DNA of 64,000 nucleotides from Bacilli bacterium. Its GTDB lineage: Bacteria > Bacillota_I > Bacilli_A > RF39 > UBA660. The translations under genes were made by a program, and so were the position numbers. How positions within the stretch are numbered: the stretch's first letter is position 1; each line of letters starts with the position of its first letter. Below the pieces are notes generated by a model. The model had not been told where the DNA came from. It saw only the letters and a program-made list of their open reading frames with translations, and did no database searches. Positions 14,721 through 26,968 of the stretch are shown here, one piece after another. The DNA is taken from assembly GCA_036667875.1 (NCBI GenBank), contig JAVWTD010000001.1, positions 5,767-69,766 of the forward strand, in the 5' to 3' direction.

Positions 14721-15824
14721 TTATTTTAATAAGTTTTTAATCTTTTCCCAAGGAAGATCTAAGTCATCTCTTCCAAAATGTCCATAAGCCGCTAGTTCAT
14801 AATATTTAATATTTAATAAATTCAATTCGTCAATCATGTTTGAAACAGTAAAATCAAAATTTTTAGAAACAAAGTTTTCAATTACATTTTTTGTTACTTT
14901 TTCAGTATTAAATGTTTCTATCATTATTGATATTGGCTTTTCTTTACCTATTGCATAAGATACTTGAATCTCACATTTTTCTGCTAAATCATGGGCTATA
15001 ATATTTTTTGCGACATATCTACAATAATAAGCTGCGGAACGATCAACTTTTGATGGGTCTTTACTGCTTAAACATCCTCCTCCAACTCTTGAATAACCAC
15101 CGTAAGTATCTACTATAATTTTTCTTCCTGTTGTTCCTGAATCACCGAATGAACCTCCGATAACAAATGATCCACTTGTATTTATAAGGAATTTTGTTTT
15201 TTTATCAATTAATTCTTTTGGTATAACTGGCTCAATTATATTTTTAATTATATATTCCTTTAAATATTCTTGTGTAACTTCTTTGTCATGTTGACTTGAT
15301 ATAATAACTGTATCGATTCTTGTTGGTATTCCATTATTATATTCAATAGTTACTTGAGTTTTTCCATCAGGTTTTAAAGGTGATTTATTGTCACTTTTTC
15401 TAACAATTGTCATTTGTTTTGCAAGCTTATTAGCTAGACATATAGGTAATGGCATCAATTCTTTTGTTTCATTACATGCGTAACCAAACATAATTCCTTG
15501 GTCTCCAGCATGTATTTTATTTTTTTCTACTGCTTTGTTGATTTCTTCTGATTGAATTCCAACTTTTACAAGTACTTCATATTTTTCGTTATATCCAATT
15601 TCTTTTATAACGTTTTTAGCAATTTCTTCATAATTTAAATTAGCTTTTGTTTTTGCTTCTCCATATATTAATATAAAATTATCTTTTATGGTAGCTTCTA
15701 CAGCCATTTTGCTGGTTTTGTCAATCATAAGAGCAGTATCTAAAATTTTGTCTGCGATTTTATCACAAATTTTATCTGGATGTCCTTCCGTTACAGATTC
15801 ACTAGTAAAATAATATTTTTCCAT
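14721..15824 (-). CDS. metK: S-adenosylmethionine synthetase
   Basis: FTSESVTEGHPDKICDKIAD, GDQGIMFGYA and GGGAFSGKDP-like motifs. Confidence 0.9.
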   Translation of the reverse strand: MEKYYFTSESVTEGHPDKICDKIADKILDTALMIDKTSKMAVEATIKDNFILIYGEAKTKANLNYEEIAKNVIKEIGYNEKYEVLVKVGIQSEEINKAVEKNKIHAGDQGIMFGYACNETKELMPLPICLANKLAKQMTIVRKSDNKSPLKPDGKTQVTIEYNNGIPTRIDTVIISSQHDKEVTQEYLKEYIIKNIIEPVIPKELIDKKTKFLINTSGSFVIGGSFGDSGTTGRKIIVDTYGGYSRVGGGCLSSKDPSKVDRSAAYYCRYVAKNIIAHDLAEKCEIQVSYAIGKEKPISIMIETFNTEKVTKNVIENFVSKNFDFTVSNMIDELNLLNIKYYELAAYGHFGRDDLDLPWEKIKNLLK

Positions 15825-15844: not shown

Positions 15845-15990
15845 ATCAAAAAAAACTCTTAAGAAAGAGTTTTACGTACCTTTATAAATACTTCTTTCTT
15901 ATCGTTATTAGCTGTACCACCTTGCTTATTGCAGGTTGGTGTGAGATCTTAGAGCTAATTCTCTCCCTCACTCTTGATAAAAGTTATATC
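15845..15990 (-). promoter_or_regulatory. SAM-I (S-box) riboswitch with intrinsic terminator in the metK leader
   Basis: Reverse strand reads CUUUUAUCAAGAGUGAGGGAGAG..GCUCU..CACACCAACCUGCAAUAAGCAAGGUGGUACAGCUAAUAACGAUAAGAAAG, matching the S-box consensus UUAUCAAGAG.GG.GGAGGGA...CAACC...GGUGCUAA...GAUAAG. It is followed by AAAACUCUUUCUUAAGAGUUUUUUUU. Confidence 0.8.
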
Positions 15991-21812: not shown

Positions 21813-22196
21813 TTATGTATTTTTATTCAGTCTTTTATACATAATTTCTTTATTTATTTTAAAATTTAATCCAAATGGATCAATTACAAATCCTTCTATT
21901 TTTTCATCTATCAACATTATACACATTTCTTTAATTGATTTAAATATAAAATTTAGTTGATTTTTTTTGCCCCATTTTTCAAATTCTTCTATAGATGTAA
22001 AACAGGGTACAAATTTTAAATTTCCATCTGTTATAAGTGGTAAATCTTTTATTTCCTTTTCTATTGAGTTTATAGGTAGTAAAAAGTTTGATTTTTCTAA
22101 TTCAATTAACAATCCTTTATAATTATTTGTTTTTTGCATTTCTTTTATCTTTTTGTTTGGAAAGTTATCTTCAAATAAAGTGAGTCCATCAAACAT
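21813..22196 (-). CDS. SseB-like protein (tentative)
   Basis: LLPINSIEKE...LKFVPCFTSIEEFEKW resembles the SseB N-terminal motif around FTS.EE. Confidence 0.3.
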   Translation of the reverse strand: MFDGLTLFEDNFPNKKIKEMQKTNNYKGLLIELEKSNFLLPINSIEKEIKDLPLITDGNLKFVPCFTSIEEFEKWGKKNQLNFIFKSIKEMCIMLIDEKIEGFVIDPFGLNFKINKEIMYKRLNKNT

Positions 22197-23376
22197 TATT
22201 TAAATTTTTTATTGCATTATCTATTGCAATTTTTCCATACTCATAAGTTAATCCGCCTTGAAGATATGCAATATAAGGTGCTCTTATAGGTCCATCACAA
22301 GATAATTCAATTGATGATCCTTGTGTAAACGAACCTGAAGCCATAATTATTTCATCATCATAACCTGGCATATTTGAAGGAATTGGTAGTGCAAATGAAT
22401 CTATAGCGGAAGATTTTTGTATGGATTGAATAAATTTTATAAGTTCTTCTTTATTTCCAAATATGATATTTTGTACTATATCAACTCTTTTATCATTATA
22501 TTTAGGTTCTACCTTGTATCCCGTTTTTTCAAGCATATAAGCAGCGTACACGGCAGTTTTGAGACTACTTGATACAACTGATGGTGCTAAGTATAAACCT
22601 TGTAAAATCATCTTATTTATACCAAGAGATGGTCCTACTTCTTTTCCTTCCCCTGGTAGTGTTAATCTTTCTGCACATAATTGTACTAAATCTTTCCTGC
22701 CAGATATATATGCACCATTTGGGGCTAATCCTCCACCTAAATTTTTAATAAGAGATCCTACAATTAAATCGGCTCCAACATGAAGAGGAGAGTTGTATGT
22801 AACCAATTCACAGTAACAATTATCTACCATTATTATTATATCTGGAGAAATATTTTTTATAAATTTTATGATTTTTTCTATTTTTTCTAAACTTAAACTT
22901 TTTCTTGTTGAATAACCTTTTGATCTTTGAATTTCAATTAATTTAATTTTTTTTGAGGTAATAGTTTCTTTTATTTTCTCATAATCAAAATCATTATCAA
23001 TTAAATCAATCTGTTCATATTTGATATTATAAGATTTTAAGGAACTAGGGTTATCTGTTATTCCGATTACTTGATGTAATGTGTCGTAAGGAAGTCCAGA
23101 AATTGATAGCATAATATCATTAGGTCTTAATAAACCAAACAAAGCTACTGTTAAAGCATGACTACCTGAAATCAGTTGACTTCTTACCAAACTATCTTCT
23201 GCTCCTAGAACATCACTAAATATTTTTTCTATAACGTCTCTTCCTAAGTCATTATAGCCATATCCAGTTGTACCATTAAAATGTACTTCAGATAGATTAT
23301 TTTTATGAAATGAATCTAAAATTCTTTTACTATTTTTTAAACATAAATCATCAATTTTTTTAAATTCTTCTTCCAT
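22189..23376 (-). CDS. YnbB/aluminium-resistance family PLP enzyme (Met_gamma_lyase-like)
   Basis: 395 aa; FHKNNLSEVHFNGTTGYGYNDLGRD...SGSHAL... is typical of PF06838. Confidence 0.7.
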   Translation of the reverse strand: MEEEFKKIDDLCLKNSKRILDSFHKNNLSEVHFNGTTGYGYNDLGRDVIEKIFSDVLGAEDSLVRSQLISGSHALTVALFGLLRPNDIMLSISGLPYDTLHQVIGITDNPSSLKSYNIKYEQIDLIDNDFDYEKIKETITSKKIKLIEIQRSKGYSTRKSLSLEKIEKIIKFIKNISPDIIIMVDNCYCELVTYNSPLHVGADLIVGSLIKNLGGGLAPNGAYISGRKDLVQLCAERLTLPGEGKEVGPSLGINKMILQGLYLAPSVVSSSLKTAVYAAYMLEKTGYKVEPKYNDKRVDIVQNIIFGNKEELIKFIQSIQKSSAIDSFALPIPSNMPGYDDEIIMASGSFTQGSSIELSCDGPIRAPYIAYLQGGLTYEYGKIAIDNAIKNLNNV

Positions 23377-24077
23377 TAGTTTTTCCCTCCATCTACTCTT
23401 ATTGTTGTTCCATTAATGTATGTTGAATCAGCAAGGAATAAAATTACTTTAGCAATTTCTTCTGGTTCTGCAAATCTCCCTAATAAAATTTTTTTATTTT
23501 CTTGTTCTATAAATTCTTCATCTAGTTCTTTATTCATTTCTGTATTAACCCATCCTGGAGCAATATCATTTACTCTTACATATGGTGCAAATTGACATGC
23601 TAAATTTTTTGTTAAAGATATCAATCCGGCTTTTGAAGCGTCATAATCTATACTCATTGGATAAAATGTATCTATTCCATTAGTTGAAGTTATATTTATA
23701 ATAGATCCATCTTTTTGATTAAACATATACTGTCCAAAAAGTTTAGATAATAAAAAAGGTCCAACTAGATTAGTTTCAAGAGTTTTAATAAAATTATTTT
23801 TTGTTTTATTTTCAAAAAGTGTATCAATTGCAATAGCAGCGTTATTTACTAATACATCTATTCTTTTGTATTTTTCAATAACAAAATTATATAATTCATT
23901 TATATTTTTTTCATCAGTTAAGTCTAATTTAAAAAGGGTTATATTTTCTTTTTTTAATTTTATTGCATTTTCTTTATTATTACAATAACATAATACTATT
24001 TCATAGTTTTCAGCTAATTTTGATAATGAAGCTCCTATTCCAGAACTCCCTCCTGTTATTACCATAACTTTTTTCAT
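23376..24077 (-). CDS. SDR-family oxidoreductase
   Basis: VMVITGGSSGIG (TGxxxGxG), NNAA, catalytic YxxxK (YDASK). Confidence 0.8.
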   Translation of the reverse strand: MKKVMVITGGSSGIGASLSKLAENYEIVLCYCNNKENAIKLKKENITLFKLDLTDEKNINELYNFVIEKYKRIDVLVNNAAIAIDTLFENKTKNNFIKTLETNLVGPFLLSKLFGQYMFNQKDGSIINITSTNGIDTFYPMSIDYDASKAGLISLTKNLACQFAPYVRVNDIAPGWVNTEMNKELDEEFIEQENKKILLGRFAEPEEIAKVILFLADSTYINGTTIRVDGGKN

Positions 24078-24183
24078 AAATCTATCCTCTTTCTTTTATA
24101 TATTATAACATATAATTTTTTTTTTTAATATTTTATTATAATAATTTATTTTGTATGATATAATTAAAATATGGTGATGAATA

Positions 24184-24540
24184 ATGAGTATATTTGAAAT
24201 ATTTAAAGAAAAGAAAACAATAAACAAGAAAAAATATGATTCCATATTAAGCAGAGATTTAACTGAAGAAAATGATTTTATTAGAGATGATTTCATGATG
24301 TCTATTGAAGAGGTTATTTTAGAAAATGGAAAAGATATTTGTTTAAATGGAAAAATTGATGCTGGAAATGTAAAAATAGGGGATGTATTAAAATATAATG
24401 GATTTAAAACTTTTATTGTAAAAAAAATTATTTACAAAAAAAATGAGGTTGAATTCGCTGAAAAGGGAAATTACATAAAATTATATTTTGAAAAGTGTAA
24501 TATGAATGAAATTGAAAAAGGTGGGGTATTAAAAAAATAG
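24184..24540 (+). CDS. standalone EF-Tu domain-II-like beta-barrel mini-protein (118 aa)
   Basis: DDFMMSIEEVILENGKDICLNGKIDAGNVKIGDVL...EIEKGGVLKK aligns by eye with EF-Tu [36 protein letters not shown]...EIERGQVLAKPG. It has its own TATAAT-like -10 and a GGTGATG RBS. There is no G domain or domain III in any flanking frame. Confidence 0.5.
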   Translation: MSIFEIFKEKKTINKKKYDSILSRDLTEENDFIRDDFMMSIEEVILENGKDICLNGKIDAGNVKIGDVLKYNGFKTFIVKKIIYKKNEVEFAEKGNYIKLYFEKCNMNEIEKGGVLKK

Positions 24541-24552
24541 TAAATCTAATTA

Positions 24553-24915
24553 CTATTTTTTTTTACAATCATTACATATTCCATGTATTTCAATATTATG
24601 TGATGTTATTTCATATCCTTTTACAATTTTAATTGGACATACTTTTAACATTTCTTTTTTATGACATATATCACATTCTACAAAGTGAAAATGGTCATTT
24701 TTTATCAAGGAATAATATATTTCATTATCTCTTACTTCTTTAGTAATAATTTCTTTTTGTAAGAATAATTCAATAACTCTATATATTGTTGATTGATCAA
24801 TATCTTTACAATATTCTAAAAGACTTTTTACGGTAGTAGGTTTTTTTAAGGTTTGATAGATTTTAATCCTTTGCGTCGTTTGCTTTATATTTTTTTCTTT
24901 TAATTCTTTAATCAT
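24553..24915 (-). CDS. Fur-family metalloregulator (Zur/PerR-like)
   Basis: QRIKIYQTLKK...STIYRVIELF winged HTH, HFHFVEC, CxxC pairs (CDICHKK, CNDCKKK). Start overlaps the upstream permease stop (ATGA). Confidence 0.8.
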   Translation of the reverse strand: MIKELKEKNIKQTTQRIKIYQTLKKPTTVKSLLEYCKDIDQSTIYRVIELFLQKEIITKEVRDNEIYYSLIKNDHFHFVECDICHKKEMLKVCPIKIVKGYEITSHNIEIHGICNDCKKK

Positions 24916-26738: not shown

Positions 26739-26815
26739 TGGGGCGACTAAAGGGAATCGAACCCTTGAGTAACGGAACCACAATCCGCCGTGTTAACCAC
26801 TTCACCATAATCGCC
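26739..26815 (-). tRNA. tRNA-His (anticodon GTG) with genome-encoded G-1 and CCA
   Basis: Reverse strand: G-GCGATTA...anticodon loop TTGTGGT...TAGTCGC-C-CCA. G-1 pairs with C73, T-loop GGTTCGATTCC. Confidence 0.85.
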
Positions 26816-26883: not shown

Positions 26884-26968
26884 TGGTACCGGTAGTCGGA
26901 CTTGAACCGACACGGGCAAAACCCACTTGATTTTGAGTCAAGCATGACTACCATTCCATCATACCGGC
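26884..26968 (-). tRNA. tRNA-Leu (anticodon CAA), class II long variable arm, encoded CCA
   Basis: Reverse strand: GCCGGTATGATGGAATGGTAGTCATG-CTTGA-CTCAAAA-TCAAG-variable arm GTGGGTTTTGCCCGTGT-CGGTTCAAGTCCGAC-TACCGGTACCA. Confidence 0.85.

Follow-up and report, generated by a model that had tools for sequence, protein, structure and literature searches.

Elongation factor Tu (EF-Tu) grips the aminoacyl end of tRNA with its domain II, which also contacts the 30S shoulder and is a target of toxins and antibiotics. The only characterised analogue among stand-alone proteins of this type is the archaeal Pbp11 (Q9UZY3, structure 7ANU; PF0907, structures 1XE1 and 4PGO; model NF041207), which links tRNA to the proteasome. 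Pbp11 has ~11 kDa and consists of a disordered N-terminal tail followed by an EF-Tu-domain-II-like barrel; it binds tRNA, for which the tail is required, and it binds the ATPase PAN (PMC9540759). Here we describe a gene for a 118-amino-acid stand-alone EF-Tu domain II protein in a stretch of 64,000 nt from a Bacilli bacterium (GCA_036667875.1, contig JAVWTD010000001.1, positions 5,767 to 69,766; in the following called the window).

We are confident that this is a functional, independently transcribed gene, that its product is composed of a short N-terminal motif, a disordered linker and a domain II barrel, and that it is a fast-evolving offshoot of a protein family (Table 1). Pbp11 is the closest described analogue, but the likeness is architectural only. 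Both proteins are small and free-standing, with a tail in front of the barrel, and the Pbp11 structure matches our model of the window protein with an E-value of 1e-6 and a root-mean-square deviation (rmsd) of 1.5 Å over 80 columns in Foldseek. Against NF041207 the window protein scores 17.3 bits (E 0.0035), below the cut-off of 100 bits. Pbp11 is restricted to Thermococcales and keeps the equivalents of EF-Tu E259 and R288, whereas the bacterial protein has I83 and K112 at these positions and a different N-terminal motif. PAN is archaeal, and we know of no PAN in bacteria of the window type.

The initial annotation of the gene, made from the sequence, was not aware of a described family of this kind. 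This has to be revised on two counts. Stand-alone PF03144 proteins form a large family, delineated below, to which the protein belongs as a divergent member, and Pbp11 had already been characterised structurally and biochemically (PMC9540759).

A divergent EF-Tu domain II

Four NCBIfam EF-Tu models match residues 30–118 of the protein at model positions 206–297 of 396, with E-values of 1.5e-6 to 6e-6. The scores against the EF-Tu equivalog models TIGR00485 and NF009373 are 25–27 bits and lie below the cut-offs of 452–522. In a phmmer search against the PDB the matches all fell at domain II, both for HBS1L (E 2.4e-4) and, at E 3e-3 and weaker, for dozens of EF-Tu chains, and a profile of three sequences of the window protein's clade matched EF-Tu with an E-value of 2e-6. 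The Pfam model PF03144 (GTP_EFTU_D2), suggested at the outset as a check, did not report the protein even at E ≤ 1; this part of the profile check failed, while the full-length EF-Tu models succeeded. Two orthologues, P0002 and P0015, reached 21.6 and 18.6 bits with PF03144, under the gathering threshold of 30.3. The window protein is therefore highly divergent. Its homology to domain II is supported despite this miss by the EF-Tu models, by profile–profile comparison and by structure.

Using an alignment of 71 sequences, AlphaFold2 predicted an all-beta structure for residues ~35–118. The predicted local distance difference test (pLDDT) values were 72–97 in blocks of 10 residues from residue 31 and exceeded 90 from residue 41, and residues 1–33 stayed below 50. 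A single-sequence run had given a poor model (pLDDT 44), which the alignment-based run superseded. As anticipated, the predicted barrel superposes on EF-Tu domain II (rmsd 1.6–2.1 Å). Searching the PDB by Foldseek returned EF-Tu domain II, Hbs1, SelB, Pbp11 (7ANU) and PF0907 (1XE1, 4PGO), the top matches having E-values of ~1e-6 and rmsd values of 1.5–2.1 Å across 80–89 columns; complexes of EF-Tu with CdiA, Tse6 and GE2270A were among them.

The protein thus shares with EF-Tu domain II the beta-barrel fold and a homologous sequence, including F-x-x-x-I-E-[DE]-V at the entry to the domain and E-I-E-x-G-x-V-L in its final strand. The former reads F37-M-M-S-I-E-E-V and aligns with F-L-L-P-I-E-D-V of EF-Tu, the latter reads E109-I-E-K-G-G-V-L and aligns with E-I-E-R-G-Q-V-L. 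Both motifs, the placement of the barrel at residues ~35–118 and the stand-alone nature of the protein had been proposed before, and the profile, sequence and structure matches agree with all of them. Identity to domain II is lower than the initial estimate of about one third, at 22–25% in Foldseek and tblastn. Unlike EF-Tu, the protein lacks the G domain and domain III, and it carries an unrelated N-terminal motif and linker.

An intact gene rather than a tuf remnant

The open reading frame (ORF) might be a fragment of a recent tuf pseudogene or have arisen by chance in AT-rich DNA. Such an origin would be in line with the low identity to EF-Tu and with the AT-rich setting (the G+C content of the window is 24.9%), but with nothing else, and we reject this explanation as extremely improbable. 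A tblastn search with an E. coli EF-Tu sequence whose numbering reproduces E215, E259 and R288 gave a single match at 24259–24537, corresponding to EF-Tu residues 200–295, and the rest of the window stayed at noise. No similarity to the G domain or domain III was found by tblastn in any frame, either between 23000 and 26000 or in the whole window, in agreement with what had been noted from the sequence. Both flanking genes are intact, as also noted before. The gaps between them and the ORF are 106 bp and 12 bp, which therefore leave no room for EF-Tu remnants. Furthermore, the explanation is contradicted by the existence of orthologues and of a family-wide architecture, and by purifying selection.

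The orthologues show 40–46% identity to the window protein. P0002 (121 amino acids; 46% identity by phmmer) stems from a Logan assembly and P0015 (122 amino acids) from a metagenome-assembled genome (MAG) labelled Mycoplasmatota bacterium SUG259. As the earlier proposal to check related genomes had foreseen, they occur in another species in the same gene order, SseB-like / Met-gamma-lyase / SDR / [domain II gene] / Fur-like / ArsP_2. Across species the domain II protein is 41.7% identical, compared with 46–73% for the neighbouring genes; it evolves fast, yet not faster than other small proteins nearby. Comparing P0002 with P0015 by the Nei-Gojobori method gave a proportion of nonsynonymous differences (pN) of 0.107 and of synonymous differences (pS) of 0.60, hence a dN/dS of ~0.10, which indicates purifying selection in this sister clade and argues against a pseudogene. 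A closer relative is a contig of MAG GCA_036658175.1 ('Bacilli bacterium'), 99.7% identical to the window over 20 kb, in which the gene is annotated as hypothetical protein; its copy has 3 differences, 1 of them nonsynonymous, and provides no power for judging selection. A word-index search with the protein alone retrieved just this near-identical MAG protein, and all other relatives were obtained by exhaustive phmmer and profile searches.

On metagenome scaffold L019 (907–5149), phage-like genes (P22_portal, Fn3_assoc) come after a P0015-type gene, in the place of the Fur-like and ArsP_2 genes. The SDR gene there is truncated, and a prophage insertion or a chimeric scaffold is possible. An 80-amino-acid 'short form', P0143, was discarded: the full ORF is present, and gene calling, N-gaps and a chimeric scaffold had produced the artefact.

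Conserved transcription and translation signals

The proposal that the gene has its own promoter and ribosome-binding site holds. The -10 box TGATATAAT on the plus strand is common to the window and the orthologous loci. It is part of the extended -10 element TATGATATAAT (TGnTATAAT), which is identical in the window and the orthologous loci L002 and L012 despite a protein identity of only ~42%. A GGTGAT core is likewise kept in the three loci, 7–8 nt after the -10 box and 3–5 nt before the ATG. A second box, TATTATAACATAT, is invariant in the three-locus alignment; read on the minus strand as TGTTATAAT, it is likely the extended -10 element of the divergent SDR/Met-gamma-lyase operon.

Two back-to-back extended -10 boxes are thus kept across species (window, 24101–24164; L002, 1404–1515; L012, 5914–6017) in an AT-rich intergenic region that has otherwise diverged. 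Neither box has a recognisable -35 element, which is why a -35/-10 consensus scan missed TATGATATAAT. Opposite the promoter and the first part of the domain II gene runs a low-complexity antisense ORF for 66 amino acids, which we take as a chance ORF in AT-rich DNA.

The gene is followed by an element made up of A-tract, 13-bp hairpin and T-tract, which overlaps the stop codon. Folding of 24520–24575 gave -13.5 kcal/mol (z -5.2), and 0 of 200 shuffled sequences were as stable. The element is likely a bidirectional intrinsic terminator common to the domain II gene and the convergent Fur-like gene; a scan with a GC requirement had overlooked it.

With orthologues, a dN/dS of ~0.10, no EF-Tu remnants and a kept promoter and ribosome-binding site, the earlier view of a long-maintained gene rather than a fresh tuf pseudogene is well founded. 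One could still suppose that the original function was lost in this lineage and that a folded but functionless or decaying protein persists. The lower cross-species identity compared with the neighbours, the disappearance of almost all family-invariant residues and the tiny size of the clade would fit such a loss. Against it, the ORF is uninterrupted and begins and ends alike in two species whose genomes have 22–25% G+C, where stop codons arise easily, the sister clade is under purifying selection, promoter and ribosome-binding site are kept, and the clade-specific segments YNGFKTF and GGVLKK are invariant. We give loss of function little credence.

Table 1 Features of the domain II locus and other elements of the window.
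Feature	Position	Strand	Remarks
Gene for the 118-amino-acid stand-alone EF-Tu domain II protein	24184–24540	+	ATG start; stop TAG 24538–24540; from the ORF list
Family N-terminal motif, codons 1–11, MSIFEIFKEKK	24184–24216	+	Ser2 where the family usually has Gly2
Polar, Lys-rich linker, codons 12–34, predicted disordered	24217–24285	+	pLDDT; variable in the family
EF-Tu domain II beta-barrel, codons 35–118	24286–24537	+	Ends exactly at the domain II/III border; profiles, model, structure matches
Extended -10 element TATGATATAAT	24154–24164	+	TG 24156–24157, TATAAT 24159–24164
Shine-Dalgarno sequence GGTGATG	24173–24179	+	4–5 nt before the ATG
Box TATTATAACATAT, minus-strand reading TGTTATAAT	24101–24113	-	Invariant in three-locus alignment
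A-tract, 13-bp hairpin, T-tract (likely terminator)	24531–24562	both	Overlaps the stop codon
SDR oxidoreductase gene	23376–24077	opposite to the domain II gene	Intact; full-length Pfam match
Fur-like regulator gene	24553–24915	opposite to the domain II gene	Intact; ArsP_2 permease gene next
Antisense ORF, 66 amino acids	24096–24296	-	Low complexity; taken as chance ORF
SseB-like gene	21813–22196	-	PF07179, E 2e-9; three genes upstream of the domain II gene in the window and L012
SAM (S-box) riboswitch	15896–15983	-	56.5 bits, gathering threshold 44.4
S-adenosylmethionine synthetase gene	14721–15824	-	Preceded by the S-box riboswitch
tRNA-His(GTG) gene	26739–26814	-	Overlying short ORFs are artefacts
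tRNA-Leu(CAA) gene	26884–26968	-	Overlying short ORFs are artefacts

A family of stand-alone domain II proteins in low-GC Firmicutes

Exhaustive phmmer searches identified small proteins of the same layout, namely P0012 (113 amino acids), P0010 and P0013 (118 amino acids each) and the N-terminus of P0005. A profile built from four such proteins had 7531 matches; among the best 120 of these, 119 are 109–152 amino acids long and nearly all contain PF03144 alone. The family comprises at least 115 sequence clusters, with proteins of 109–135 amino acids, in the sampled metagenome and MAG contigs of low-GC Firmicutes. Sampled loci have 22–30% G+C, with one at 39%, and represent ordinary chromosomal Firmicutes contexts. 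The counts in the next paragraph refer to the 119 proteins.

The clusters have in common an N-terminal motif that can be summarised as MG[LIF][FL][DS]x[LF], a polar linker and a domain II terminating at the domain II/III border. In detail, an N-terminal motif M-[GS]-[ILFW]-[FLI]-[DESNGKR], with the consensus MGLFDFLFKK, is present in 114 of the 119 proteins, three of which have Ser2 as in the window protein. Three members start with MFGF[FKR]K, and in P0078 and P0112 a hydrophobic, transmembrane (TM)-like helix of 15–19 residues followed by KK replaces the motif. Between motif and barrel lies a polar, low-complexity segment of variable length, which places the entry phenylalanine of domain II 7–50 residues (median 36) from the motif. 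In 95 proteins the C-terminus coincides exactly with the residue aligned to the last residue of EF-Tu domain II.

The window protein has the same three-part architecture, motif and C-terminal end as the main family (e.g., P0012, P0017, P0073). It follows the pattern M-[GS]-[ILF]-[FL]-[DES]-x-[LF]-x-K, and its C-terminus GGVLKK aligns with GDxLTK of the family and GQVLAK of EF-Tu. By hhalign, the window clade (the window protein and its orthologues) matched 61 main-family members with 99.2% probability and an E-value of 8.7e-20 over columns 1–122 versus 1–119. Because this match spans the full length including the N-terminal motif, the window protein is a divergent family member and not an independent tuf fragment.

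Main-family proteins match EF-Tu models with E-values of ~1e-28 to 1e-31 and EF-1alpha models with 1e-13 to 1e-21, and on these grounds the family appears to descend from bacterial EF-Tu. Only a few sources are named, and their names are automatic, either 'elongation factor Tu' or 'translation elongation factor EF-Tu-like GTPase'. There is no dedicated NCBIfam model for the stand-alone family, and we found no description of it in the full-text literature searched.

Variants of the layout occur as well. P0005 (422 amino acids) combines the N-terminal motif with a zinc ribbon, domain II and a C-terminal domain weakly similar to SseB (E 2e-4). In GCA_045531055.1 (39% G+C; L009, 4676–5360), two stand-alone domain II genes for proteins of 99 and 119 amino acids lie in tandem between tatD and ksgA. 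The phmmer list also contained EF-Tu domain II/III modules without a G domain in other architectures (P0009, P0007, P0004, P0008 and P0011), several of them tandem domain II repeats. P0009 has, by eye, a signal-peptide-like N-terminus, followed by SLH repeats and two domain II–III units, and in P0007 the domains II–III–II are combined with a zinc ribbon and a hydrophobic TM-like stretch. Such proteins may place EF-Tu modules outside the cell, which would be unexpected. Two further entries of the list, P0003 and P0006, were compositional false positives.

Loss of the aminoacyl pocket in the window clade

Main-family members are 45–67% identical to each other, but only 17–28% identical to the window clade. 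The EF-Tu signature blocks, including GDNVGxLL, are near-invariant in the main family and hold what domain II contributes to the pocket for the aminoacylated A76. The roles of E215, D216, F218, I220, T228, R262 and N273 in this pocket reportedly derive from the ternary-complex structures of Nissen et al. The pocket residues of EF-Tu are 89–100% conserved in the main family, with the exception of Glu215 at 77%. Because the pocket is strictly kept without domain I, an aminoacyl-adenosine-like or another EF-Tu domain II ligand may be expected for the main family.

The window protein has instead the segments EEVILENGKDICLNG, KIIYKKN and GNYIKLYF. As the signature blocks are missing, the window clade is a divergent sub-clade and not typical of the family. 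In contrast to EF-Tu, the pocket residues are replaced (D216 by E, F218 by I, I220 by E, T228 by N, E259 by I, F261 by K, R262 by K and N273 by Y); the equivalent positions are E42 (E215), E43, I45, E47, N55, I83 (E259), K86 (R262), Y97 (N273) and K112 (R288). In P0002 the equivalents of E215, D216, F218, I220, T228, E259, R262, N273 and R288 are E, N, L, a gap, S, K, D, E and I. The window clade keeps the structural G-x-x-x-x-G-D turn, Y71-N-G-F-K-T-F77 and the C-terminal G-G-V-L-K-K. Its conserved surface consists of A60-G-N-x-K-I-G-D-x-L-x-Y-N-G-F-K-T-F-x-V-K80 and G113-G-V-L-K-K. The clade is tiny: clustering at 90% identity gives five clusters, and of these P0143 is the mis-called copy of P0015.

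These replacements bear on the suggestion that a free domain II could bind aminoacyl-tRNA 3′ ends. In its fullest form the protein would be a free tRNA or aminoacyl-tRNA binder whose barrel holds the acceptor end and whose Lys-rich tail adds RNA affinity. Pbp11, a stand-alone domain-II-like barrel with a tail, does bind tRNA, and its E259 and R288 equivalents correspond to tRNA-end contacts of EF-Tu (PMC9540759). The weak match to the Pbp11 model, the match to its structure, the sequence KEKKTINKKK at residues 8–17 and the pocket retained in the main family all point the same way. However, in the window clade this pocket is replaced, with I83 for E259 (K in P0002), K/D for R262, I/L for F218 and Y/E for N273. 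Neither net charge nor isoelectric point (pI) gives an RNA-binding signal, the window protein being about neutral and the orthologues acidic (pI 5.2), and in EF-Tu domain II provides only part of the tRNA site. With the pocket residues lost, binding of aminoacyl-tRNA ends by the window protein is unlikely, and we hold a free tRNA binder in general to be improbable.

Alternatively, the protein might mimic EF-Tu domain II as a decoy that competes for the 30S shoulder, a toxin, a phage protein or a domain-II-binding antibiotic, and thereby modulates translation or protects EF-Tu. At least one toxin docks on EF-Tu through domain II alone, as CdiA-CT of E. coli NC101 binds domain 2 of EF-Tu exclusively (PMC5737660). 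The complexes with CdiA, Tse6 and GE2270A among the structural matches and the very strict preservation of EF-Tu-like surfaces in the main family are compatible with this idea. However, PADLOC gave no match to a defence model, PHROGs yielded only noise (E > 0.003), tblastn with a family member as query detected, among phage records, just host tuf in mis-binned or contaminated entries, and a BFVD fold search returned only giant-virus translational GTPases. These searches therefore indicate no phage or defence link. There was also no defence-island or mobile-element context, and the window clade is no longer EF-Tu-like on the surfaces in question, which would make it a poor decoy. We regard this alternative, like the preceding one, as having only a small chance of being correct.

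A possible tether and adaptor

We favour a different arrangement, in which the protein would act as a tethered adaptor. A short amphipathic helix formed by the N-terminal motif would attach the protein to the cytoplasmic side of the membrane or to a partner. The linker would serve as a leash, and binding would fall to the barrel. Main-family barrels, which keep the domain II half of EF-Tu's aminoacyl-A76 pocket, may recognise aminoacyl-tRNA ends or ligands of EF-Tu domain II. In the window clade a protein or ribosomal partner is the most likely target, rather than the aminoacyl end. This mechanism is tentative. Taken together, the well-supported identity of the protein and this mechanism form what we consider, with moderate confidence, the best overall explanation.

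Three observations lend support to a docking motif. In P0078 and P0112 its place is taken by the TM-like helix with KK on the cytoplasmic side. Throughout the family, Gly or Ser at position 2, an aromatic or aliphatic side chain at positions 3, 4, 6/7 and 8 and the lysines that follow are near-invariant. Finally, helix alpha0 of Vipp1 starts with MGLFDRLGRVV, resembling MGLFDF and MGIFSK of the family and MSIFEI of the window protein. Membrane binding of the Vipp1 alpha0 peptide depends on its amphipathic character. The N-termini of PspA (MGIFSRF...) and of Bacillus FtsY (MSFFKKLKEK...) are similar to the family motif. The likeness to PspA and Vipp1 (IM30) extends over 6–10 residues only; the helix would be much shorter and an ESCRT-III-like body is missing, and we claim no homology.

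Several findings weigh against our interpretation. The hydrophobic moment of the 11-residue N-terminus is only moderate at 0.24–0.34 (0.25 in the window protein), compared with 0.54–0.71 for PspA and Vipp1, and the AlphaFold models contain no confident N-terminal helix. The AlphaFold model depends on an alignment in which EF-Tu-like family members predominate. No operon partner is common to ten independent family neighbourhoods, so that gene context offers no clue to function. Fast evolution and the loss of the family's most conserved residues could reflect relaxed constraint.

Genomic neighbourhood

An SDR gene adjoins the domain II gene in three of the ten contexts, divergently in the window clade (window, 23376–24540) and in L017 (3129–4342) and co-directionally in L003 (6001–7136). 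As the three SDR proteins are only ~30% identical to each other, this adjacency is probably due to chance. An SseB-like gene lies near the domain II gene in the window and in L012. In view of the fusion in P0005, this neighbour might hint at a functional link.

Elsewhere in the window, an S-box riboswitch precedes the S-adenosylmethionine synthetase gene, and genes for tRNA-His and tRNA-Leu were identified (Table 1).

Implications

A broader view would be that the family constitutes a membrane-tethered reader of aminoacyl-tRNA ends or of the ribosomal factor-binding site, acting away from EF-Tu, with the window clade as an offshoot in which tether and barrel have been neo-functionalised to serve a new partner. 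We consider this proposal speculative and rather improbable. If it were true, the family could pass aminoacyl-tRNA to membrane transferases of the Fem/MurM type for peptidoglycan or of the MprF type for lipid aminoacylation; alternatively, ribosomes might be parked at the membrane. The window protein stands at the degenerate end of this family, and its value lies mainly in pointing to the family and in providing a natural 'pocket-minus' control. The family itself would add a new component where translation and, probably, the membrane meet.

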